Shown here: positions 1 to 11,106 of the stretch, in pieces
Numbering within the stretch: the stretch's first letter is position 1
Layout of the letters: every line of letters starts with the position of its first letter
IMG/VR virus record: IMGVR_UViG_2579778753_000002
Coordinates: 1 to 11,595 of that record
DNA length: 11,595 nucleotides
Source of the DNA: a virus
Lineage: Duplodnaviria; Heunggongvirae; Uroviricota; Caudoviricetes
Reading direction: 5' to 3' (one strand)
Made by a program: the position numbers and the translations under genes
Notes under the pieces: model-generated
What the model was told of the DNA's origin: nothing
What the model saw: only the letters and a program-made list of their open reading frames with translations
Database searches by the model: none

Positions 1-95
1 AGTTTGCTCCTGCCATAACGTGAAGAAGCAATGACCTGGTGGTCCGTGACTTCCCTACGCTGGCATTATCCAGATCAGGTGATACGGGTATTTCT
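1..95 (-). promoter_or_regulatory. thiM: 3' portion of the thiM TPP riboswitch / thiM 5' leader (thi-box 3' helices, P1 3' strand, SD), cut off from its 5' half by the island
   Basis: Reverse complement of 1-95 reads AGAAATACCCGTATCACCTGATCTGGATAATGCCAGCGTAGGGAAGTCACGGACCACCAGGTCATTGCTTCTTCACGTTATGGCAGGAGCAAACT. I recognise this from memory as the 3' two-thirds of the E. coli thiM thi-box leader ending at the SD (GGAG at 6-9, minus). The thiM ATG would lie immediately left of position 1, outside the window. Confidence 0.85.
82..95. repeat. att core / target-site direct repeat, left copy (ATACGGGTATTTCT)
   Basis: Exact 14-bp direct repeat with 11182-11195. Each copy is joined to one half of the thiM riboswitch sequence on its outer side and to island sequence on its inner side. 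Confidence 0.8.
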
Positions 96-154
96 TACTA
101 ATTTTTGTTATCAGTTGATAATTAATAAGTTTTTAAGCATATAAGAATTAAAAA

Positions 155-230
155 CCTCAAAAATGACCACACAACTGACCACACATTTCGTTGAAGCCCT
201 ACGAACAACGACGAACAATAACAAACAAAA
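155..230. repeat. Arm-type direct repeat (left), containing tandem TGACCACACA x2 and CGAACAA x2
   Basis: About 95% identical to 11031-11106 (4 differences over about 75 bp). In an excised circle the two copies would flank the core at roughly 60 and 85 bp, as integrase arm sites do in attP. Confidence 0.6.
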
Positions 231-1755: not shown

Positions 1756-2397
1756 TCAGCGACCAATCACCACAATCTGGCCGCCATCCCCTTCATCTGC
1801 TGTGCTGATCTCTTGCGAAATCACCCGCGACCCGACGCGCATTTCACCGTACAGAACAGGCACAACATTGCCCTGGGCAACCATGTTATCCAGAGAGGAG
1901 AAATAGGTGTTCTGCTTACCGTTATCCGTGGTGCTGGCTGTTGCTGTGCTGGCTTTCGGTGCCAGCATCTGTGCAACACCACCAAGTGTCATCGCCGCCC
2001 CCATTGAAAAGAGAATGTCACTGAAAGCGATACTGATTCCTGGCATCCAGATTGCCGTAGCAATCAGCGCCGCACCAAGCACCGCCTGAAACACGCCGCC
2101 ACTTTTGGCACCAGCCAGACGCGGTACGATGTGGATCACGGCACCATTTTCCAGCGGTTCATTAAGACGGGCTGATAATTCGTTTTCGCCTGTATCACGC
2201 CCGGCAATACGCACCTGATACCAACCATCGCTCAGTTTCTGACGAAACGCTGGGATCTGCATGGCCAGCGCCCGGATGGCTTCGGCCCCCGTTTTCACAT
2301 GAAGATCGATGCGGCGGCCAAATCGTTGTAAATCCCCGTAAAGGCAGATGCGTGCCATGCCCGGTGACGCCAGAGGGAGTGTGTGCGTCGCTGCCAT
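1756..2397 (-). CDS. Lambda gpI-like tail tip assembly protein, 213 aa
   Basis: ATG start with an AGAGAGG RBS. The protein (MAATHTLPLASPGMARICLYGDLQRFGRRIDL...ADEGDGGQIVVIGR) matches my recollection of lambda tail assembly protein I almost end to end, with a shorter Gly/Ala-rich central region. Recalled, not searched. Confidence 0.65.
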   Translation of the reverse strand: MAATHTLPLASPGMARICLYGDLQRFGRRIDLHVKTGAEAIRALAMQIPAFRQKLSDGWYQVRIAGRDTGENELSARLNEPLENGAVIHIVPRLAGAKSGGVFQAVLGAALIATAIWMPGISIAFSDILFSMGAAMTLGGVAQMLAPKASTATASTTDNGKQNTYFSSLDNMVAQGNVVPVLYGEMRVGSRVISQEISTADEGDGGQIVVIGR

Positions 2398-2486: not shown

Positions 2487-4400
2487 TCATGCTCCATTCG
2501 ATTTCAGCAATCCACGATAATCGAGGGCCGCGACACCTGCATCTATGCGCACCTTCCAGGCGACACCATCAACAGTAAAGCCCACCTGCTCCTCAAGATA
2601 TGGCGTATCCATACCATCAAGATAAGCGACTTCTATTGTGTCCATCCCCTTAGCTGCGGCTACATACCATTCCTTGCTATTGGCCTTATCAAGACGTGGC
2701 TCAACAATTACTTCTGCCATATCTTTCACAACGTTAATGATGCCGGGGTTCTGATTGATAGTACCCTCATCACCAACCGGAAAGACTGATGACGATGACA
2801 GAATGGCGCGACGCGCGGCAGATTCCAGCGCGGCAGGGACCAGAACAAAAGCAGGGGTAATATTCAGTGAGTCGCCGTTAGCATCCTCCTGGAGGCGCAT
2901 CAGCTTACGGGCTTCATCAAGCCCCACCATGTCCATATCCTTCGCAATAAGATTTTTATGATCGGCATGGAATAACGCTTTACCATCCGTAAACTTGCCG
3001 TTGCTGGTTAACAGGAGATAAACCAGATTGCCAACTGTTCTGGCGGCTGCGCGTCCCATCGCCATGGGGATTGTAGTTAACTGGGTCAGGTCATCGTTGA
3101 TAATGGCCTGACGGGTAACGGAAAAAATATTCCCGTACGTGGCCAGCGCAATAGGTACACCTTTATCGCTGGTGGTGATGTATTTATATTCCGCACCTTC
3201 CGGTACTTTATCCAGCTTTGAAAAACCATTCAGACCAACGCGCTTTGCTTCATGAAAGTTTGAAAGCGAACCGGTACGCGTCCATTTCTGGAACGTTTCG
3301 CCGCTGTCCTGCCAGCCTTTCAGTACAGATTTTTCAGCCCCACCAGCCAGAATATGAGAAAAATCACTGCTGCTGTGTGTAAAAGCCGCATTAACAACCT
3401 GCGAGCGATTAATAAAACCACTCACAGTGATACCACGATCAACCAGTGATGCCTGGGCCATTTCAAAAAGGCTCATCATCGCGTAAGGGTTGCCTCGTTC
3501 AGGGCGTTCATACCCAAGACGGGAATAAAGCCCCTGACGAATTGCATCACCTGTTATGTTTCCGTTTCCGGCATAGATATGAGGCGGAGTATTTTTATTG
3601 GATGGCGTGGACTCGCGCCCCAGCTCGTTCAACAGCTTTTCACGGGCCATTTCCGGTGTACATGATGCATCTTCCAGACACGCCATTTTGATCCCGTCGT
3701 AACGACTGCCGAACAGGCTAAACACTTCACTTATTCCATTGATGCGCTTCTGTTCATTACCAGCAATATTTGCCGCTCCCTGTGGCGGTGTAATCATTCC
3801 TTTAATGGTTTCCGGCATATGTAAAAAATCTCCTGTGCGCTTCGATTCAATTCGCGCCATTGCTCTGACGGATGGCAACAATTCATCAGCAAAACCGTGC
3901 TTAAGGCATTCTTTCCCGTCCATCCAGGTTTCATCTTCCAGCATGGCGGTAATTTCCTGTGCTGATTTGCCCGTTTTTCTGGCATAAGCAGGGACTAACA
4001 CGGTTTCCACCTTATCCAGCAAATCAGCATAATCACGCATATCACCAGCATTTCCGCCAGAGATACCCCACGGCTTATGTATCATCATCATGGCGTTTTC
4101 CGGCATCACAACACGATCGCCAGCCATTGCGACCACCGAAGCCATTGAAGCCGCAACACCATCGATATAAACCGTAATGTCTGCCGGATGATTCCGTAGC
4201 AGGTTATAGATGGCGATGCCTTCAAACACATCACCACCTGGTGAATGGATCCTCAGATTGATATGTGAAACATCGCCAAGGGCTTTCAGGTCTTCCGCGA
4301 ACTGCTTTGCAGTAACACCGAAGCCGCCAATCTCCTCATAGATAGATATATCCGCCGCTCCGCGAACATCCGCCGCCTTAATGGTGTACCAGCGATTCAT
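2487..4400 (-). CDS. Fusion of ClpP/S14-type prohead protease (N-terminal), linker/scaffold-like segment and HK97-fold major capsid protein (C-terminal), 637 aa
   Basis: N-terminus has ClpP-like motifs (HSPGGDVFEGIAIYN, GVAASMASVVAMAGD, MMMIHKPWG). The C-terminal 350 aa or so looks like a phage major capsid protein (ITPAFVLVPAALESAARRAI..., FTVDGVAWKVRIDAGVAALDYRG). ATG start with a GGGGGAA RBS. Long ORF with no internal stops. Confidence 0.85.
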   Translation of the reverse strand: MNRWYTIKAADVRGAADISIYEEIGGFGVTAKQFAEDLKALGDVSHINLRIHSPGGDVFEGIAIYNLLRNHPADITVYIDGVAASMASVVAMAGDRVVMPENAMMMIHKPWGISGGNAGDMRDYADLLDKVETVLVPAYARKTGKSAQEITAMLEDETWMDGKECLKHGFADELLPSVRAMARIESKRTGDFLHMPETIKGMITPPQGAANIAGNEQKRINGISEVFSLFGSRYDGIKMACLEDASCTPEMAREKLLNELGRESTPSNKNTPPHIYAGNGNITGDAIRQGLYSRLGYERPERGNPYAMMSLFEMAQASLVDRGITVSGFINRSQVVNAAFTHSSSDFSHILAGGAEKSVLKGWQDSGETFQKWTRTGSLSNFHEAKRVGLNGFSKLDKVPEGAEYKYITTSDKGVPIALATYGNIFSVTRQAIINDDLTQLTTIPMAMGRAAARTVGNLVYLLLTSNGKFTDGKALFHADHKNLIAKDMDMVGLDEARKLMRLQEDANGDSLNITPAFVLVPAALESAARRAILSSSSVFPVGDEGTINQNPGIINVVKDMAEVIVEPRLDKANSKEWYVAAAKGMDTIEVAYLDGMDTPYLEEQVGFTVDGVAWKVRIDAGVAALDYRGLLKSNGA

Positions 4401-4731: not shown

Positions 4732-4867
4732 TCTGTCACTCGTTGCTTAAAACGGTATGTTATCCCCGTACGGATCATCATTCCCCGCCTGTTGTTTTGG
4801 TGTGCTTCGCTGTCATAGGCTTTATCTCACAGCAGTAAATTAAAATTTTTGCGTTTTAACCCTTCAC

Positions 4868-5090
4868 CTGTTCACCTTTTGATATTTTCTCTTTTAATTC
4901 ATAATGTTAAGGGGTGAACAGTTTCAAAAAAACTATTCACCAACTGTTCACCACTGTTCACCCTTGAAGCTCAATAAACAATCAAAAAGGTGAACAGTGA
5001 ATAGTTTGGTGAACAGTTCATAAATAACTGTTCACCCTATAATATACTGATATAAAAGATATTTATGACAGGGTGAACAGTGGTGAACAG
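4868..5090. repeat. Iteron array (at least 9 copies of GGTGAACAG / CTGTTCACC in both orientations) with an AT-rich stretch: candidate P4-type origin of replication
   Basis: Direct copies at 4913, 4989, 5009, 5072, 5082. Inverted copies at 4868, 4944, 4954, 5029. Degenerate copies at 4933 and 4997. AT-rich 5041-5069. Sits immediately 3' of the alpha-like gene. The motif contains TGTTCACC, which I recall as the P4 alpha-binding type I iteron. Confidence 0.75.
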
Positions 5091-5103
5091 TTATTCCATA
5101 AGT

Positions 5104-6921
5104 TTAATTTTTGCTATCGTCATTAGTGACCGATACACATGATGGCATCCAGTCTTCTGATTCCTCCGTCAGTGTCACGTTTGAACGCAAACCGTGCTTC
5201 GTTTTCCGTTTCATATACTCCCTGCCATATTCCGCCATTGCCCCCGGCATATCTTTACCGAAGCGCGTCAGTGTTACAGGTTTACCAAACCCATGTGCCC
5301 TCATATAAGCCAGATAGGCATGATAGAGATACCTGCGTGGGCTGAATGGCACAATTTCAGCATTACCCACTAACAGGCCATCACACATTACCGACGCCAT
5401 GAGATAGCCGCAGAAGTCCACCAGCGAATCCCCCTCTCGCTTTATCGCCAGTGCTTCTTCTGATTTCTGCTGCTCATATAACAGGCGTCTGGCTTCGTCC
5501 TGGTCAGCAAACCGTGTAAGCAGATGGCGAATCACTACCGCCAGCTCACCTTCTATTTTTTCCGCCAGCATTGGATCACGTTCGTTCTCCGGTACAACTT
5601 CCGAAAAATTGAATATCACCCGACGACGTGAGATCCCCCCGCTGCGGTCACTGAATGACATGGCGTTATTGTTAACCGCCAGCACTACTGCCGGAATACG
5701 CGTTGAGTAGGGGGCTTTGTGTTTCGGGTCAATTGCCACCTTGTCACCGCCTGTAATAGCCTTAATCCCTGCCCCATCACCAGCGTAGCGGGTCATATCC
5801 GGCATGATAATCAGCGAAAAGCCAACCACTAACGCGCGTTCCCTTGCATCTTCCAGCGCCTTCATGCTTGCCGATACTGTGTTGGCCTTACCCGCCAGCA
5901 TGGTGCAAATCTCCGCCATCACGCTTTTACCACTTCCCCCTGGACCTGTTACCTCAATGAATAACTGCCAGTCGTACCGGTTCGCCAGCACCATGAATAA
6001 TGCAGCCAGTACGCGATCCGCCTTGCGGTCATTCTCAGCCACCGAACGGCGTAACCACTTCCAGAAATTCGGCGCATGTGTTGCCAGCATTTCCCCCTCT
6101 GCTGGTGGGCTGAAAGGTAATTCACTGGCAATTAACAACCAGTCGTTTTTGTTATGCTCCCGAAAATTACCTGTTCTGGTATCAAATACCCCGTTACTGA
6201 ATCCAATCAGGTTACGGGCTGTATTCCCCATTACAGGCAAACTTAACTTCATGGTATCGACCGCCGATTTAATGGCGTTCTGCGAATAGCTGATCTCCGC
6301 ATCAATGAAAATCTGCGCCATAGCTCGCTGTAATTCTTTATCCTGTACTGGCTCCCATACAACGCCGTTGTAATGGTGAACAGTGTCAGAGTCAGCATGA
6401 ATCGCCAGTTCACCGCCATAATGTGCCAGGAGAACTTCGCCGCGTTGACTTGCTCCCATCTGGTTAAGCGCCAGTGATGAAGCGTTATCGTCTTTTACCC
6501 GCTCTTTTTTCTTTACAGGCAGTTCAACTACCTTTTTCTTTTCCTCCAGCTCTGCCCGTTCACGTTCCAGATATTCGCGCCAGTTCTCCCGTTTCTGGCT
6601 GTGCATTCCTTCAGGGTAATAATCAGCATCCCTGACACCTGCCGCTGCCAGTTTCTGCCCGATGGTATTAACAAGCCCCGGACGCAATAACCCCGCCTGA
6701 TAGAGACGCACGCGATAGCGTCCGTCCGGTACGATTTGCAGGTTGTCCAGTTCGGCAAGTTGTTGCTCTCCAAGCCAGACAGGAGGCACGTTATCGCCAG
6801 CCAGTCGCCCGTCCTGTTCCTGCCACTGCTTCGCATGTGCCCACGCATTACTACCCGCAAAAATGATGACTTCCGTCATTTTGTCACGCGGCTGGTGTTT
6901 TAAATTTGGCGCTTTTTTCAT
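5104..6921 (-). CDS. P4 alpha-like replication protein (D5_N-type domain plus SF3 helicase with Walker A GPGGSGKS; phage/plasmid primase P4-family C-terminal region)
   Basis: About 605 aa from the ATG at 6921 (GGAG RBS); the ORF track extends to a GTG at 6936. Walker A VTGPGGSGKS, Walker B-like LVVGFSLIIMPD. Adjacent to the iteron array. Confidence 0.85.
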   Translation of the reverse strand: MKKAPNLKHQPRDKMTEVIIFAGSNAWAHAKQWQEQDGRLAGDNVPPVWLGEQQLAELDNLQIVPDGRYRVRLYQAGLLRPGLVNTIGQKLAAAGVRDADYYPEGMHSQKRENWREYLERERAELEEKKKVVELPVKKKERVKDDNASSLALNQMGASQRGEVLLAHYGGELAIHADSDTVHHYNGVVWEPVQDKELQRAMAQIFIDAEISYSQNAIKSAVDTMKLSLPVMGNTARNLIGFSNGVFDTRTGNFREHNKNDWLLIASELPFSPPAEGEMLATHAPNFWKWLRRSVAENDRKADRVLAALFMVLANRYDWQLFIEVTGPGGSGKSVMAEICTMLAGKANTVSASMKALEDARERALVVGFSLIIMPDMTRYAGDGAGIKAITGGDKVAIDPKHKAPYSTRIPAVVLAVNNNAMSFSDRSGGISRRRVIFNFSEVVPENERDPMLAEKIEGELAVVIRHLLTRFADQDEARRLLYEQQKSEEALAIKREGDSLVDFCGYLMASVMCDGLLVGNAEIVPFSPRRYLYHAYLAYMRAHGFGKPVTLTRFGKDMPGAMAEYGREYMKRKTKHGLRSNVTLTEESEDWMPSCVSVTNDDSKN

Positions 6922-7217
6922 TTCTGCTCTCTCCACGCGGCAATCATGTTTTTCAGTTCCTGTAGTTTTTTATCAACATCCATACATGACACATGGTTAT
7001 TTCTGGAAGGCGGGATTTCCCGCCGGAATCTGCAAATAAAGATCTCCACGTTCAGCGAACTATGAAATGAATAGCCATCACGAATAAAATACACACGGTC
7101 AAACATCAGTTCTTTTACCGTTACTCTGTTACCGTTCTTATCCAGATAAATAGCGCCGGGGATAATTTTGGGGTGTGCATAACCGCTGGCAGTCAAGCCA
7201 GATATATATGTTCTCAT
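6918..7217 (-). CDS. Hypothetical protein (99 aa), translationally coupled to the alpha-like gene
   Basis: ATG start. Its TGA overlaps the ATG of the alpha-like gene (ATGA at 6918-6921). No family recognised. Confidence 0.55.
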   Translation of the reverse strand: MRTYISGLTASGYAHPKIIPGAIYLDKNGNRVTVKELMFDRVYFIRDGYSFHSSLNVEIFICRFRREIPPSRNNHVSCMDVDKKLQELKNMIAAWREQK

Positions 7218-7223
7218 GATTAT

Positions 7224-7544
7224 TTATCCCCGATTTGAATCAGTATTCGCTTTCTTTATGGCATTTAATGCATCTGTGGCATTTTCAATGGTGCACCGTA
7301 ACGAAATATCAAACTGCCCAAGCATTGCCAGTAACAAACCGATATTACCCATATCAATGCGCATGGCCTTTTCGTCATAGTCCTCATTTTCTGACGCATG
7401 CCACATCAGGCTACCAATTGACGCAATACCCATTGATATATTGTCAGTAGCCCCATCCGCAGCGGAATAAACCTTTTTAGCAATATCATGCTCACAGTTA
7501 AAATGCGGATTAATCAGGTACTGGTAATTGGTCATGTCAGGCAT
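7224..7544 (-). CDS. Hypothetical acidic protein (106 aa)
   Basis: ATG at 7544 preceded by AGGGGGGG. Ends 7 nt before the next gene in the same operon. No family recognised. Confidence 0.55.
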   Translation of the reverse strand: MPDMTNYQYLINPHFNCEHDIAKKVYSAADGATDNISMGIASIGSLMWHASENEDYDEKAMRIDMGNIGLLLAMLGQFDISLRCTIENATDALNAIKKANTDSNRG

Positions 7545-7740
7545 GGCACCCCCCCTGACGAATACGGGCGGCGAATACCATCACGCAGCCAGCCGGGGAT
7601 TGCTGGCGTGCTTCCTGTTCGCTGGTGGCCACGATGGTAATCACGCGCGGTTGTGCCGTGCTCAGGGCGATAAAACGCCAGATGTATTTATTCAGGTTGT
7701 GCGAGTCCCGCCCTTGCGGGTGTGTGGTATGATTTCTCAT
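7537..7740 (-). CDS. Possible small protein (67 aa), first gene of the replication operon
   Basis: ATG at 7740 with GAGG 7 nt upstream. Its stop overlaps the 106-aa start by 8 nt (ATGCCTGA). It is the C-terminal segment of a long, otherwise implausible 362-aa ORF. Confidence 0.35.
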   Translation of the reverse strand: MRNHTTHPQGRDSHNLNKYIWRFIALSTAQPRVITIVATSEQEARQQSPAGCVMVFAARIRQGGCHA

Positions 7741-7838
7741 AGCTGCCTCGATAATCTTGCTATCGTTGGTGGTTAGAAGCCCCGTTACTGCTCCTACAGT
7801 GCGGGGTTTCGTCGTTTCTGCACCTTGCATTAACAAGG

Positions 7839-7916
7839 TGTAAGTAACTTTATTTATAGGTGGCTTACATGTCAATGCTTTTATGTAAGACTTTTTATGT
7901 GTATATTGTCTTACAC
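7839..7916. promoter_or_regulatory. Divergent promoter/operator region with four GTAAG/CTTAC half-sites
   Basis: Half-sites at 7840, 7864, 7885, 7910, including CTTACAT-N12-ATGTAAG. Minus-strand promoter candidate: -35 TTGACA (7875-7870), 17-bp spacer, -10 TAAAGT (7852-7847). Plus-strand candidate -10 TATATT (7902-7907). Confidence 0.45.
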
Positions 7917-7936
7917 TTTCATTGAGAGGATTACAG

Positions 7937-8242
7937 ATGGCTACAGGTTCAAAAAACGCAAAATCACAATCACTGACAGCTCGGATCCCGCATGATGTTA
8001 TTGAAGGCATGGAATCCGTAAAACTGGACGGTGAAAGCAACGCCGGATTCATAGTAACCGCCATGCGCGGTGAAATCGCCCGCCGCCAGGCAGAAGGAAG
8101 CGGAGAAAACCTCCTGGTTTCTTCGCTCGATGCCCTAGCGCAGGTGGAAAAAATCGGAGTCAAAGCCGCCGAGGAGATCGGGCAACTCGTCACCGTCGCG
8201 CGTGAAGAACTCCAGCGACGCAAGGTCAAAGAGCAGGAATAG
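7937..8242 (+). CDS. Ribbon-helix-helix-like putative DNA-binding regulator (101 aa)
   Basis: ATG at 7937 with GAGAGGA 6 nt upstream (the ORF track's 7922 start is a TTG). N-terminal beta-strand-plus-helix pattern (SLTARIPHDVIEGMESVKL). Transcribed opposite to the rest of the island. Confidence 0.55.
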   Translation: MATGSKNAKSQSLTARIPHDVIEGMESVKLDGESNAGFIVTAMRGEIARRQAEGSGENLLVSSLDALAQVEKIGVKAAEEIGQLVTVAREELQRRKVKEQE

Positions 8243-8299
8243 CCACTATCAGCGCCATAGTTTGAGGAACGCAGGCGCATTGCTTTACAGGACAGCACC

Positions 8300-8479
8300 A
8301 TGAGCGACACAGAATCAACCAAAACACCATCACCAACTCGTAAGAGACGACGCAAAAATATAGCGCATGAACATGAATCAGAAAGATTCGCACCTTGTTC
8401 GTTTGCTCTTGAGAAATTCCTTAAAGAGCACAGGAAAAAGCTCTCGTTGCAAACCTTGGAACGAACCAAATCTGACTGA
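8300..8479 (+). CDS. Possible small basic protein (59 aa), downstream of the RHH-like gene
   Basis: ATG at 8300, in-frame TGA at 8477-8479, just below the 60-aa track cutoff. Lys/Arg-rich N-terminus (TRKRRRKNIAHEHE). Followed by a strong terminator. Confidence 0.35.
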   Translation: MSDTESTKTPSPTRKRRRKNIAHEHESERFAPCSFALEKFLKEHRKKLSLQTLERTKSD

Positions 8480-8546
8480 TCACATTGCCCACCAGCCGCA
8501 AATGTGGCATTGTTGGCGATGCGTTCAAGTTTAGTGTGTATCCATT

Positions 8547-8575
8547 GGCGACCGCCCCCGGTCGCCTTTGTTTTA
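8547..8575 (+). terminator. Rho-independent terminator of the rightward RHH-like operon
   Basis: GGCGACCG-cccc-CGGTCGCC (8-bp perfect stem) followed by TTTGTTTTAT. Confidence 0.8.
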
Positions 8576-8593
8576 TATGTCATATGCTCCCCT

Positions 8594-8818
8594 TTACGCT
8601 GCCTTACCTGAATTAACGCGGTCACGGCTTTGCACCCAGTCCATAACTTCGGAAAGCAACCAGCCTACAGAACGCCCCCCAAGATTACGGCGAGACGGAA
8701 AGCCCCCTTTCTTCTCCAGTTCGTAGCGTGTAGTACGGCTGACGCCTGTTAACTTACGACATTCATCCTCACGAATTACGCGATCTGTTAGTGATTGAAA
8801 TTGTGTATTTTGATTCAT
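8594..8818 (-). CDS. alpA: AlpA-family prophage transcriptional regulator (74 aa)
   Basis: ATG with GAGGGTG RBS. HTH region (CRKLTGVSRTTRYELEKKGGFPSRRNLGGRSVGW) matches the AlpA/MerR-like fold found next to P4-type integrases. Confidence 0.85.
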   Translation of the reverse strand: MNQNTQFQSLTDRVIREDECRKLTGVSRTTRYELEKKGGFPSRRNLGGRSVGWLLSEVMDWVQSRDRVNSGKAA

Positions 8819-8921: not shown

Positions 8922-9776
8922 TTAATTTTCATTAGATAACATTTTTCTTATTTTTTCTAAAGAATCGCTGCGCATTATTTTTTCTAAGAAGGGTTTTACA
9001 GTCTGAGCAATAGCAAAGGTGTCCTTTTCACCATCAGGATACAAAGATACGGCAAGCACCCCTAATGAAATTTTTCTATCTGTAGACAACTCCCAAGATA
9101 ATAAGTCAATTAATGGGATTATCTTATAATCAATAATTTTACGTCGTATGCTCTCCCAACTTCCTGCAATTGGTTTGTCTGGCTCAACAATTGAAAGTTC
9201 ACTACGCCATTTTGGTAATAGTTTTGTAAACGCTTCAATCAACTCATCATCTCTGTTATGTAGTAAGTCAACAGAAACAAGCATATTATCTAATGTATCA
9301 GAAAGGAGATTCACTGGTTCACGCATCACAGCCCAAAACATCCCATTATCTTCTGATATTAAACTTCCAACCATCTCATTATCTATGATGATTGGTTTAT
9401 CCTTCCAATATCCTCTTTCCGCAGTCAGTTTATTAATCATTGATATATCAAACCTTGTTACAGGTTTAATTCCATCATCATAACTTAGCTCAATTAACTT
9501 CGGTTGCACTTTATGGTCATATTCTTTTTGTTTATCACAAAACCAATCGTCTTCTTTCAGCTCTCCAAATGGATCCCCGTAATTATTATGCAACGGGTAT
9601 TCAGCACCAAACATAAATCCATATTCAGGCATCTCAGAATGTTTCATCGTTAAATCATCTTGTCGCCAATATAATTGGCGAAATAGATCTTTATCCGACA
9701 AGTTTTCTAGGCAATCATATTTGCCTAAATCAAATGACTTTGGTAAATCTTTTTTACTATTTACTTTTTTCGTCAT
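8922..9776 (-). CDS. Hypothetical protein (284 aa), AT-rich cargo gene between int and alpA
   Basis: Uninterrupted 855-nt ORF. Its ATG overlaps the int TGA (ATGA at 9773-9776). Visibly more AT-rich than the flanking int and alpA. No recognisable catalytic motif. Confidence 0.75.
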   Translation of the reverse strand: MTKKVNSKKDLPKSFDLGKYDCLENLSDKDLFRQLYWRQDDLTMKHSEMPEYGFMFGAEYPLHNNYGDPFGELKEDDWFCDKQKEYDHKVQPKLIELSYDDGIKPVTRFDISMINKLTAERGYWKDKPIIIDNEMVGSLISEDNGMFWAVMREPVNLLSDTLDNMLVSVDLLHNRDDELIEAFTKLLPKWRSELSIVEPDKPIAGSWESIRRKIIDYKIIPLIDLLSWELSTDRKISLGVLAVSLYPDGEKDTFAIAQTVKPFLEKIMRSDSLEKIRKMLSNEN

Positions 9777-10993: not shown

Positions 10994-11030
10994 TATCAGA
11001 TCCTCTTTTCAGTCCTCCAGCCTCAAAAAA

Positions 11031-11106
11031 CTGACCACACAACTGACCACACATTTTGTTGAAGCTCTACGAACAACGACGAACAACAACAAACAATAAA
11101 ACAGGA
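11031..11106. repeat. Arm-type direct repeat (right), partner of 155-230
   Basis: Same tandem TGACCACACA and CGAACAA sub-repeats. Lies in the int upstream region, about 40 bp from the int start. Confidence 0.6.

Follow-up and report, generated by a model that had tools for sequence, protein, structure and literature searches.

The window, by which we mean the whole stretch of 11,595 nucleotides analysed, contains a PICI-type island of ~10.9 kb that lies between thiM and rcnR in E. coli. The island is bounded by two copies of a 70-nt direct repeat, the partner copy (11027-11096) being 94% identical to the one at 159-228. Three ORFs of 67, 106, and 99 aa are present on the minus strand upstream of the primase/helicase gene, where the first-pass annotation had placed them. 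The genes and features that frame them are as follows.

159-228, no strand assigned: attL, one copy of the 70-nt direct repeat that bounds the island together with its partner copy (repeat search)
4867-5096, no strand assigned: replication origin, at least nine GGTGAACAGT iterons in both orientations, downstream of the primase gene (repeat search)
5104-6921, minus strand: Pri-Rep primase/helicase gene, 605 aa, with D5_N, DUF5906, and Pox_D5 domains
6918-7217 (7217 to 6918), minus strand: orf99, DUF4222/RgdR family, 99 aa, pI 9.6
7224-7544 (7544 to 7224), minus strand: orf106, acidic (pI 4.6), predicted two-helix hairpin, start within the ATGCCTGA overlap
7537-7740 (7740 to 7537), minus strand: orf67, ATG start, Icd/Kil family, 67 aa, pI 10.7
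7937-8242, plus strand: ylcI, matching NF041551 at 71 bits (cut-off 30), divergent from orf67 and antisense to the long frame described below
8594-8818, minus strand: alpA, PICI activator gene and proposed upstream transcription entry point, matching PF05930 at 58.8 bits

As that annotation had proposed, the chain is tightly coupled into the replication gene, through an 8-nt overlap, a 6-nt gap, and an ATGA overlap. Its description of the boundaries as overlapping fits orf67/orf106 and orf99/primase, whereas orf106 and orf99 are separated by the 6-nt gap (7218-7223). Positions 7537-7544, common to the orf67 stop and the orf106 start, read ATGCCTGA on the minus strand, and positions 6918-6921, common to the orf99 stop and the primase ATG, read ATGA. 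Each gene of the chain is preceded by a Shine-Dalgarno sequence (GAGG, GGGGGG, GGGGA, and GGAGAG). The primase starts at the ATG at 6921 and not at the upstream GTG at 6936 given by the program-made ORF list, in agreement with RefSeq, where the annotated CDS spans 1818 nt.

RefSeq annotates all three small ORFs, and the orf67-orf106-orf99 module recurs in 1609 of 5426 complete E. coli genomes (~30%). In 22 related loci, the joins of the icd-to-primase chain are mostly overlaps of 4 or 8 nt, and the overlap at the Icd stop has one of these two lengths in 19 of the 22, across many genera and regardless of the next gene. The dN/dS ratio for the ORFs is 0.2-0.5 at informative distances, which is only moderately below 1 and comes from a measure that is saturated at long distances. 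Both orf67 and orf99 exceed curated family cut-offs. Given two family matches above cut-off, the spread over 1609 genomes, the conserved junctions, and the dN/dS values, the chain is more than chance: the three small genes are real and form the start of the replication operon of an E. coli PICI phage satellite. That at least one of the ORFs is a chance reading frame is scarcely credible. orf106 has no Pfam or NCBIfam family, as such a frame would, but a profile search returned more than 120 relatives of it in Klebsiella, Erwinia, Serratia, and other genera (25-40% identity), its predicted fold is confident, and the RefSeq calls, conserved junctions, and dN/dS below 1 all speak for genes.

In composition the island is a Gram-negative PICI: int, alpA, and pri-rep share a strand, the iteron origin follows the last of these, att repeats flank the whole, a late/packaging module is present, and the size is in keeping with the ~10-15 kb expected. 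Iteron origins have been described for Gram-negative PICIs, and that of the island matches (PMC6092414). The same work establishes AlpA as the PICI activator and describes an AlpA-dependent downstream reporter; in Gram-negative PICIs it is the helper that induces the island, via alpA, and not the island that derepresses the helper (PMC6092414). In the window, the alpA product is 45% identical to P4 ORF88. EcCICFT073 and EcCIEDL933 (OI-51/Sakai Sp7) share with the island the order int, alpA, divergent ylcI, leader, and Icd-like ORF, followed by small overlapping ORFs, a 99-aa DUF4222 gene, an iteron origin, and a late module; in the island, as in EcCICFT073 and Sakai Sp7/OI-51, a 4-nt overlap joins the DUF4222 gene to the primase. 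The island differs from both in its middle cassette (a single 106-aa gene, as against three or four unrelated 60-80-aa ORFs), in its late module (ClpP-capsid fusion, tail assembly protein, and DUF1441), and in its integration site (thiM/rcnR). Because two of the small genes fall in known families, the locus counts as an unexceptional example of a layout already known, one present in EcCICFT073, EcCIEDL933, and ~30% of complete E. coli genomes.

Families of the three small proteins

None of the three proteins had been considered recognisable in the first-pass annotation; two of them are. orf67 matches NF033153, the Icd-like host cell division inhibitors, at 70 bits (cut-off 25), and orf99 matches PF13973 (DUF4222) at 61.7 bits (gathering threshold 27). 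A sequence search of the PDB returned no match for orf67, orf106, or orf99.

orf67 is an Icd/Kil-family protein, encoded by the first separately initiated ORF of the operon and nested in a longer frame, with a conserved GAGG-ATG start. P4 Kil scores 76 bits against the same NF033153 model, and P1 Icd also belongs to the family. The identity of orf67 to P1 Icd is 32%, in an alignment that spans the whole P1 core (aa 12-51), with R22, E41, A58, and R59 corresponding to R15, E32, A48, and R49 of P1 Icd, residues for which FtsZ contacts are predicted. In P1 Icd, the core is sufficient for FtsZ binding, the FtsZ contacts being AlphaFold3 predictions (PMC11897509); from the 32% identity, orf67 is predicted to bind FtsZ as well. 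In Xenorhabdus and Photorhabdus, the counterpart of orf67 has shrunk to 32-53 aa and lost the AxxExEAR core, yet retains the start, both termini, and the 8-nt junction. Retention of the ORF and its junction without the Icd core argues for a role in cis, in which translation is coupled to downstream expression. The label "transcriptional repressor" on Icd-like PHROGs is a propagated misannotation.

orf99 is a DUF4222/RgdR-family protein and the positional counterpart of RgdR (ECs1581). It has the same length as RgdR (ECs_1581) and the CFT073 homologue (C1493), to which it is 32% and 35% identical, respectively, and its pI is 9.6, compared with 10.1 for RgdR. RgdR is an EHEC regulator that activates LEE1 and represses motility; the RGD at residues 20-22 is needed for DNA binding and LEE activation, and all tested variants affect motility even without an intact RGD (PMC3378721). 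Residues 20-22 of orf99 are PGA. A DUF4222 gene also adjoins xis in the lambdoid helper prophage of CFT073.

orf106 is a conserved two-helix protein of an uncharacterised, satellite-specific family. Its only family match is phrog_15327, and it occupies the same operon position in two further loci (L080 and L083). Structure prediction (AF2), which the first-pass annotation had suggested as a check, gave a confident model of orf106 (pLDDT 83.7, helices 19-51 and 58-105) and a poor one of orf99 (pLDDT 57). A fold search with orf106 returned generic helical hairpins alone (E > 0.5), and no relatives of it were found among the small ORFs of the model PICIs EcCICFT073 and EcCIEDL933. Kinship of orf106 with TPR-like or other repeat proteins was considered and dropped, the large matches (P0058, P0060, and P0065) being summed weak partial matches of repeat proteins. 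The name "ubiquinol-cytochrome C reductase" on the orf106 family is likewise a propagated misannotation.

The position of these genes had been compared with that of P4 epsilon, and the comparison holds: the 8-nt overlap between the orf67 stop and orf106 has its P4 counterpart in that between kil and eps, which places orf106 exactly in the epsilon position. The equivalence is one of position only. No protein of the window matches PF25738, the Derepression protein family, against which epsilon scores 168 bits; comparison of the orf106 family with epsilon by hhalign yields a probability of 0.09%, and BLAST is also negative. With BLAST, Pfam, and hhalign all negative, any homology between orf106 or orf99 and the P4 proteins eps, ORF151, and ORF106 was rejected. 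A visual likeness of P4 ORF151 to DUF4222 was not supported. The PADLOC defence models matched none of the three ORFs, and no protein of the window passed the 0.001 default; the only match below the 0.01 limit used was BrxA (E = 0.0068), to a 95-aa ORF at 676-963, outside the three-ORF locus. The helper-directed or anti-defence roles that had been suggested for the small proteins are guesses, given the known families of orf67 and orf99, the absence of any epsilon likeness or PADLOC match, and induction of the island by the helper via alpA; orf106 is the only candidate for them.

Long frame, leader RNA, and candidate operators

Four further features lie between the end of alpA and the orf67 stop.

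7537-8625, minus strand: long stop-free frame, from the end of alpA to the orf67 stop, with the geometry of P4 eta
7744-7814, minus strand: conserved structured leader, with an interrupted hairpin, an invariant UCUAACCA, and a small stem beside the Shine-Dalgarno sequence, just upstream of the orf67 ATG
7847-7875, minus strand: candidate sigma70-like internal orf67 promoter, TTGACA, 17 nt, TAAAGT, 10/12 in a consensus scan
7839-7915, no strand assigned: candidate operators, four TGTAAGnC octamers and two palindromes (repeat search)

The long frame comprises 362 codons from a GTG at 8625, or 348 from an ATG at 8583 that is preceded by a Shine-Dalgarno sequence; AGGGGAGcatATG lies 11 nt past the alpA TAA. 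It contains no stops over 902 nt, compared with 21 and 17 in the other two frames. Across the window, other loci (L001, L002, L009, L015, and L025), and P4, 0-1 in-frame stops stand against 12-23 in the other frames (2-3 over 171 nt in P4). EcCICFT073 has the same open frame, of 367 codons, whereas the antisense open stretch of K-12 ylcI, taken as a control, runs to only 90 codons. As with P4 kil/eta, orf67 has a start of its own but makes up the 3' end of a longer frame, here one of ~350 codons that has been kept open all the way from alpA. ylcI is antisense to the long frame in ~36 satellite loci, and the third codon positions of the two coincide, so that codon-position substitution patterns cannot separate them. 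In the part of the long frame that precedes Icd, neither the window nor any of seven other PICI-type loci has a Pfam match that reaches or approaches threshold; one PICI-type frame gives a sub-threshold V-ATPase_C match (13.5 bits, cut-off 23.1). The Phage_ASH (Bro-network) domain, which scores 82 bits in P4 Eta and 61 bits in locus L017, is absent from the long frame of the window. Lacking a domain upstream of Icd and having a composition unlike that of a protein, the long frame may not be translated.

The conserved leader occupies the position of the C4/CI RNA of P4. Covariation analysis found 90.7% of cells paired, with both sides changed in 10 of 17 pairs and 0 of 500 shuffles reaching this. 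The leader model (R1) scores 66.4 bits in the window and matches 50 of 82 sources, none of them a P4-like element bearing C4/isrK. No Rfam family matches the leader, with no match in the window at E ≤ 1 or to the leader alone at E ≤ 10. A C4/CI-type RNA in the leader was rejected for lack of an Rfam match, whereas P4 and two satellite loci (L017 and L033) match clearly; as positive controls, P4 returned C4 and isrK, and the other two returned C4, isrK, and c4-a1b1. Elsewhere in the window, no complementary partner for the invariant UCUAACCA was found.

Taken alone, the internal promoter match is not significant, matches in the region being no more frequent than in shuffled sequence. A -35-like hexamer (TTGACA, TTGACG, TTGAAG, or TTGAAA) lies at about the same distance upstream of the ATG in most PICI-type leaders. 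The palindrome at 7839-7869 overlaps the candidate orf67 promoter at the -10 and abuts it at the -35, and the one at 7884-7915 adjoins the ylcI start. Other islands carry island-specific motifs at the same positions, co-varying with the N-terminal strand of YlcI. The ylcI product, of the YlcI/YnfO family, is a candidate regulator of the orf67 promoter.

The left operon of P4 (vis/ORF88, eta/kil, eps, orf151, orf106, and alpha) has the same gene order from the alpA-like gene to the primase. In both elements, an NF033153 Kil/Icd ORF is the first to be separately translated, ends a long frame that starts beside the alpA-like gene, overlaps the next gene by 8 nt, and has an internal promoter upstream, a candidate one in the island. 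There are also differences. The island primase is 49% identical to P4 alpha over residues 301-771 only, the N-terminal 300 residues of alpha being absent; the C4/CI RNA, isrK/seqA, and c4-a1b1 elements of P4 are missing, with another conserved leader hairpin instead; the long frame is without the Phage_ASH domain seen in Eta and, unlike eta, passes antisense through ylcI; and there are no homologues of epsilon, ORF151, or DUF5375. The P1 immI operon (c4, icd, and ant1/ant2) also has an Icd-family ORF that follows a regulatory leader and overlaps the next gene, icd overlapping ant1 by 4 nt and being annotated as required for ant expression. This dependence of the next gene on icd translation is proposed for the island by analogy. 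The genes downstream are an antirepressor in P1 and small satellite proteins plus the primase in the island, which lacks the C4 RNA and the a/b target sites of immI.

A proposed gate on the replication genes and its alternatives

By analogy, the regulation of the operon looks like that of satellite P4. The explanation that we favor, and consider probable, is that the ORFs are the promoter-proximal genes of a PICI early/replication operon with P4/P1-like gating. As in P4 kil/eta and P1 icd-ant, transcription would enter at two points, an AlpA-activated upstream promoter and an internal promoter just before the leader. From the AlpA-activated promoter, ribosomes would translate the long frame across the antisense ylcI region. 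Translation of orf67 would then serve as the gate, with re-initiation at ATGCCTGA and shielding of the mRNA from polarity allowing orf106, orf99, and the primase to be made; if initiation at orf67 were blocked through the leader, the replication genes would be silent. For P4, kil/eta translation is reported to prevent termination (summarised in PMC10111431, section 20, citing Forti 1999). In a P4-type module this would be Rho-dependent termination upstream of the replication genes; for the island, retention of the ORF and its junction without the Icd core is indirect support for such an effect. Control in P4 and P1 depends on the C4/CI RNA and on isrK/seqA, which are missing from the window and from the PICI-type loci, so that the gate mechanism would be a borrowed one. 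In trans, Orf67 may transiently block FtsZ-ring assembly, as P1 Icd does; Orf99 may bind DNA, as a small basic protein whose production keeps pace with that of the primase, with a part in replication or in RgdR-like host regulation; and Orf106 may bind some partner. Two observations on orf99 run against this explanation, the absence of the RGD needed for RgdR activity and the poor AF2 model.

Other accounts of the same genes were weighed against this gated operon. orf67 could be solely a trans-acting toxin or division inhibitor, its overlap with orf106 being ordinary packing and the long frame an untranslated by-product of antisense ylcI. The Icd domain is indeed intact with its key residues conserved, overlaps of 4 or 8 nt are frequent in phage operons, the frame antisense to ylcI in wobble alignment has no stops even in K-12 DLP12, and the long frame is odd in composition and devoid of recognisable domains. 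We regard this account as unlikely: only in satellites does the open frame exceed ylcI by hundreds of nt on both sides (200-433 codons, versus 90 in DLP12), it has its own Shine-Dalgarno sequence and ATG directly after alpA, and a purely toxic role does not predict that Xenorhabdus and Photorhabdus would drop the Icd core yet keep the ORF, start, and junction. P4 and P1 also offer precedent for a cis role (for P4, PMC10111431). A helper- or defence-directed function, in which the small proteins would be analogous in function to P4 epsilon and its neighbors and would act by sensing or derepressing the helper or by countering host defences, appears quite unlikely. Its attractions are the exact epsilon position of orf106, with the 8-nt overlap of a Kil-family stop; the wide variation of the icd-primase cassette in number (1-6 small ORFs) and content, as an arms race would give; and the small, acidic, predicted helical hairpin of orf106, a shape frequent in protein-binding inhibitors. 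Set against these are the failure of any window protein to match PF25738, the hhalign probability of 0.09% for the orf106 family versus epsilon, the lack of a PADLOC match for any of the three ORFs, the membership of orf67 and orf99 in families with other known activities, and the induction of Gram-negative PICIs by the helper through alpA (PMC6092414).

It is also possible, if rather doubtful, that orf99 acts mainly as a regulator of host genes like RgdR, on virulence, motility, or surface properties, and is thus island cargo rather than a replication accessory. The DUF4222 gene that takes this position in OI-51/Sp7 is RgdR itself, which represses motility as well as activating LEE1, with variants lacking an intact RGD still affecting motility (PMC3378721), and both proteins are basic. 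An identity of only 32%, PGA in place of the required RGD, and the absence of LEE from most hosts of this island type argue otherwise. So does the genomic setting: the DUF4222 gene always overlaps the primase, implying translational coupling, and is also found beside xis/int in a lambdoid prophage, which together suggest a function native to the mobile element.

Beyond the gated operon that we favor, a broader and doubtful proposal is that Gram-negative PICIs run a P4-like immunity/induction switch built from other parts, namely the YlcI repressor, the leader RNA, and an Icd-ORF/long-frame translation gate. A ribbon-helix-helix-like YlcI repressor would bind island-specific operators over the orf67 promoter; the structured leader RNA, replacing C4/CI, would control initiation at the Icd-like leader ORF; and translation of the Icd-like ORF, or of the ~350-codon frame that is coupled to alpA and antisense to ylcI, would permit expression of the replication genes. 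If true, this switch would supply two things that the PICI literature calls unclear for these elements, the "global repressor" and a post-transcriptional gate. The YlcI operators, the new leader RNA, and translational gating are testable candidates for the silencing of PICI replication genes, a question open in the literature.

In the founding PICI paper, Int, AlpA, and Pri-Rep were the only components counted as distantly common to P4; the Kil/Icd leader ORF is a fourth component, linking PICIs to both P4 and P1. RgdR, known only as an EHEC virulence regulator, is the conserved primase-coupled gene of PICIs, which suggests that its native role lies in the life cycle of the satellite.

The early operon and its island

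The three small ORFs ahead of the primase gene are an ordinary example of a Gram-negative PICI early operon. The ORF listing places them as follows:

7740 to 7537, minus strand: orf67
7544 to 7224, minus strand: orf106
7217 to 6918, minus strand: orf99

The minus strand reads ATGCCTGA at 7537–7544, which combines the orf67 stop with the orf106 start, and ATGA at 6918–6921, which combines the orf99 stop with the primase start. Both junctions described in the first-pass annotation are present; orf106 and orf99 do not overlap and are separated by a 6-nt gap. A Shine-Dalgarno sequence lies ahead of every gene of the chain, and the ATG at 6921 is the start of the primase (605 aa), in agreement with the RefSeq annotation. 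The same annotation had found none of the small proteins recognizable, which was wrong for orf67 (Icd-like) and orf99 (DUF4222); the RefSeq names are 'host cell division inhibitor Icd-like protein', 'hypothetical protein', 'DUF4222 domain-containing protein', and 'DNA primase family protein'. The module was found in 1609 of 5426 complete E. coli genomes, 442 of which cover at least 80% of the query (6800–7900). Its dN/dS is 0.2–0.5 at intermediate distances and saturated beyond. Across 22 loci, one to six small genes lead to the primase, mostly with −4 or −8 overlaps; the junction at the stop of the Icd-like gene is an 8-nt overlap (ATGnnTRR) in 14 loci and a 4-nt overlap in 5, regardless of the gene that follows.

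The surrounding island sits between thiM and rcnR and has two repeat features:

159–228 and 11027–11096: 70-nt att direct repeat from a repeat search, bounding an island of about 10.9 kb
4867–5096: at least nine iterons, GGTGAACAGT, in both orientations, flanking AT-rich DNA directly downstream of the primase gene

The minus strand carries int, a DUF6387 gene, alpA, orf67/orf106/orf99, and a D5_N/DUF5906/Pox_D5 primase-helicase. The iteron region is likely the island origin, matching the description of E. coli PICIs, and beyond it lies a late module comprising a ClpP-capsid fusion, a tail assembly protein, and DUF1441. This is the published Gram-negative PICI architecture (PMC6092414; PMC10111431). 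In EcCICFT073, the genes are arranged alike: int, alpA, and a divergent ylcI, then an Icd-like gene of 66 aa, four small ORFs that overlap, a DUF4222 gene of 99 aa with a 4-nt primase overlap, SSB, PerC, and capsid genes. Sakai Sp7 (OI-51, an EcCIEDL933-type cf-PICI) likewise shares its gene order with the window.

Late modules of at least three kinds are joined to the regulatory and replication module: one has a ClpP-capsid fusion and a tail assembly protein, another a complete cf-PICI head module, and a third TerS and a capsid-family protein. The int/alpA/ylcI/icd/orf106/DUF4222/primase module is 98% identical between the window and the related loci L001, L002, and L084, which occupy different chromosomal sites. 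These islands exchange modules at the primase/late boundary. The late module of the window encodes a lambda-I-like tail assembly protein (1756–2397, minus strand), and L002 holds a fragment of a 'phage tail protein' pseudogene at 3804–3965; such tail genes may derive from a helper as captured late genes, or may be left over from a time when the island was embedded in a helper. The DUF6387 gene (8922–9776, minus strand) occupies the place between int and alpA, and closely related islands, with 92% or 87% of the window covered, list a HEPN-domain protein in addition, suggesting that these islands have, at some place, a variable hotspot for accessory or defence genes. Abutting the attL repeat (159–228) is a partial TPP riboswitch match (35–169, minus strand), which scores 33 bits, below the gathering score of 54; 48 nt are inserted in it, and its outer helices are broken. 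Insertion of the island seems to have taken place at the 5′ edge of the thiM leader, and regulation of thiMD may therefore be altered. Of P4 alpha, only residues 301–771, which make up its helicase and C-terminal portion, align with the 'primase' of the island (5104–6921, minus strand). The first ~125 residues of the island protein show no relation to the primase domain at the N-terminus of alpha, and its sequence therefore gives no evident sign of primase activity.

Candidate operators and leader ahead of orf67

Between alpA and orf67, the following elements were located:

7937–8242, plus strand: ylcI
7839–7915: four TGTAAGnC octamers forming two palindromes, one over the orf67 promoter core and one adjoining ylcI
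7875–7847, minus strand: TTGACA-17-TAAAGT promoter match from a consensus scan, not significant alone
7744–7814, minus strand: conserved structured leader between the promoter and the orf67 ATG, with an interrupted hairpin, an invariant UCUAACCA, and a small stem beside the Shine-Dalgarno sequence

Most PICI-type leaders have a −35-like hexamer (TTGACA, TTGACG, TTGAAG, or TTGAAA) about equally far ahead of the ATG. In other islands, different motifs occupy the same three places, and changes in the motif go with changes at the variable residues of the N-terminal strand of YlcI (K-S-Q-xxxx-R-[IVF]-P-H). Loci with the same strand have the same motif, even when they belong to different genera. Such a link could also be the product of joint inheritance of YlcI and its operators as a linked block. 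On the reading that YlcI recognizes these operators, it may be the island-specific repressor missing so far for Gram-negative PICIs; our literature search returned no report on YlcI/YnfO function.

The leader is paired in 90.7% of cells, against 27–43% in slid controls. Ten of its 17 pairs are altered on both sides, and none of 500 shuffles matched the observed values. A covariance model matched in 50 of 82 sources, on the operon strand every time, and extended beyond the training set to about 30 Xenorhabdus and Photorhabdus loci and one Erwinia satellite. By this model, the element is present in Sakai Sp7 and absent from P4, the P4-like loci L017 and L033, P1, the CFT073 lambdoid prophage, and DLP12. 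Leader and C4/isrK never occur together among the sampled loci. With no Rfam family matching it, the leader is a candidate new RNA motif, found in no catalogue.

orf67 and the frame that encloses it

On the NCBIfam model NF033153 ('phage_ICD_like'), orf67 scores 70 bits (cut-off 25), and the P4 Kil sequence scores 76. P4 Kil corresponds to the last 65 residues of an ORF still entered in the P4 record as 'cI gene product (AA 1-137)'. The Icd-like PHROGs phrog_6196 and phrog_1743 are named 'transcriptional repressor', an annotation artefact that probably stems from the obsolete P4 'cI gene product ORF137' entry. Identity of orf67 to P1 Icd is 32%, and the alignment includes the P1 12–51 core, which suffices for FtsZ binding and growth inhibition (PMC11897509). 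The P1 residues R15, E32, A48, and R49, predicted to contact FtsZ (PMC11897509), are all identical in orf67. By homology and analogy, we infer that FtsZ would be the target of orf67.

A role in cis is also suggested by the smaller relatives. In Xenorhabdus and Photorhabdus (among the related loci L018–L070, e.g., L035:4420–4545), the ORF behind the leader has just 32–53 aa; its N- and C-termini are retained, as is the 8-nt ATGnnTAA junction, and the AxxExEAR Icd core is lost. The ORF and its junction are thus better conserved than the FtsZ-binding part, which fits the precedents of P1 and P4. Expression of P1 ant needs icd translation, according to the record annotation, and in P4, translation of kil/eta keeps transcription from terminating prematurely (PMC10111431, section 20). 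By homology and analogy with these systems, translation of orf67 would gate expression of orf106, orf99, and the primase. In EcCICFT073, a reporter placed downstream of alpA depends on AlpA (PMC6092414), which is in keeping with read-through from the upstream promoter.

The first-pass annotation had likened the position of the chain to that of the P4 early genes; the analogy is borne out and is closer than was stated. orf67 is the end of a long open frame:

8625 to 7537, minus strand: stop-free frame of 362 codons, about 350 of them from the alpA stop onward
L078:14752–16053: its counterpart in a related locus

The frame has its own Shine-Dalgarno sequence and ATG (AGGGGAGcatATG at 8583), 11 nt past the alpA stop. 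Over the 902 nt between alpA and the Icd domain, it contains no stop codon, compared with 21 and 17 in the other two frames. The pattern recurs in P4 and in five related loci (L001, L002, L009, L015, and L025), and EcCICFT073 has 367 open codons, its other frames holding 28 and 19 stops. Where an additional gene follows alpA, the long frame begins at the stop of that gene. Across genera, the internal start is conserved in the form E-[VA]-x-x-M, encoding GAGG-N-ATG. The geometry of orf67 within the long frame matches that of kil within eta, although here without the Ash domain: a Phage_ASH domain forms the upstream part in P4 and in two P4-like loci, as in Eta, and no domain can be recognized in this part in PICI-type loci. 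There, the frame runs antisense through a YlcI/YnfO-family gene (through ylcI and orf59 in the window), and the third codon positions of both frames coincide. At ylcI of K-12 DLP12, the control, the open antisense stretch is 90 codons as opposed to 200–433 in satellites, and the long frame is therefore specific to satellites. Within its first codons lies a GC-rich hairpin with a T-run (8547–8566, plus strand) that looks like a terminator closing the ylcI–orf59 unit; because of this terminator-like hairpin, other loci have an apparent conserved 'KTKA..GRQ' peptide motif at the N-terminus of the frame.

Of interest to specialists are the link of PICIs to P4 and P1 through Kil/Icd, the P4-like nesting preserved without Ash or C4, the uncatalogued leader motif, and the candidacy of YlcI and its operators for the missing PICI repressor.

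orf99 and orf106

orf99 scores 61.7 bits on Pfam DUF4222 (cut-off 27), a family with a characterized member, RgdR (ECs1581) of EHEC O157:H7 OI-51. RgdR (99 aa, pI 10) is an activator of LEE1 and type III secretion, a repressor of motility, and a DNA-binding protein with no sequence specificity. It requires the RGD at residues 20–22, and the ED1a orthologue, which carries R20C, shows no activity (PMC3378721; PMC10877973). Because Sakai ECs_1581 lies within 'prophage Sp7' and overlaps the primase gene ECs_1582 by 4 nt, it is the positional orthologue of orf99. The window protein is of equal length and basic (pI 9.6); it shares 32% identity with RgdR and 35% with the CFT073 homologue, but has P-G-A where RgdR has RGD. 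AlphaFold2 models it poorly (pLDDT 57). Because it is invariably coupled to the primase, orf99 may have a native role tied to replication or early regulation. A 79-aa DUF4222 protein also adjoins xis/int in the CFT073 lambdoid helper prophage.

The position of the chain had further suggested helper-derepression or anti-defence functions. These roles are without support, because searches with the P4 epsilon family and the PADLOC defence models gave no match for orf67, orf106, or orf99; orf106 is the sole remaining candidate. It matches no Pfam or NCBIfam family, its sole match being phrog_15327. Kinship with P4 epsilon was ruled out by family comparison, and none of the small ORFs of the model PICIs is related to orf106.

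Close relatives of orf106, which is acidic (pI 4.6), occur in E. coli only, and a profile search extended the family to more than 120 proteins of ~100–106 aa with 25–40% identity in Klebsiella, Erwinia, Serratia, Raoultella, and Phytobacter. Many members (among P0075–P0163) are named 'ubiquinol-cytochrome C reductase', which we take to be a misannotation. AlphaFold2, run on a 65-sequence alignment, predicts two long helices (19–51 and 58–105) with a pLDDT of 83.7. A fold search returned generic hairpins only (E > 0.5), and a sequence search found no solved relative. The most that we infer is that orf106 binds a protein partner. Distant members occupy the same operon place: one precedes a small ORF, DUF4222, and a D5_N primase in a PICI embedded in a Klebsiella helper, and another is found in the Erwinia satellite L083, which has a Toprim/DUF927 primase and then RexAB.
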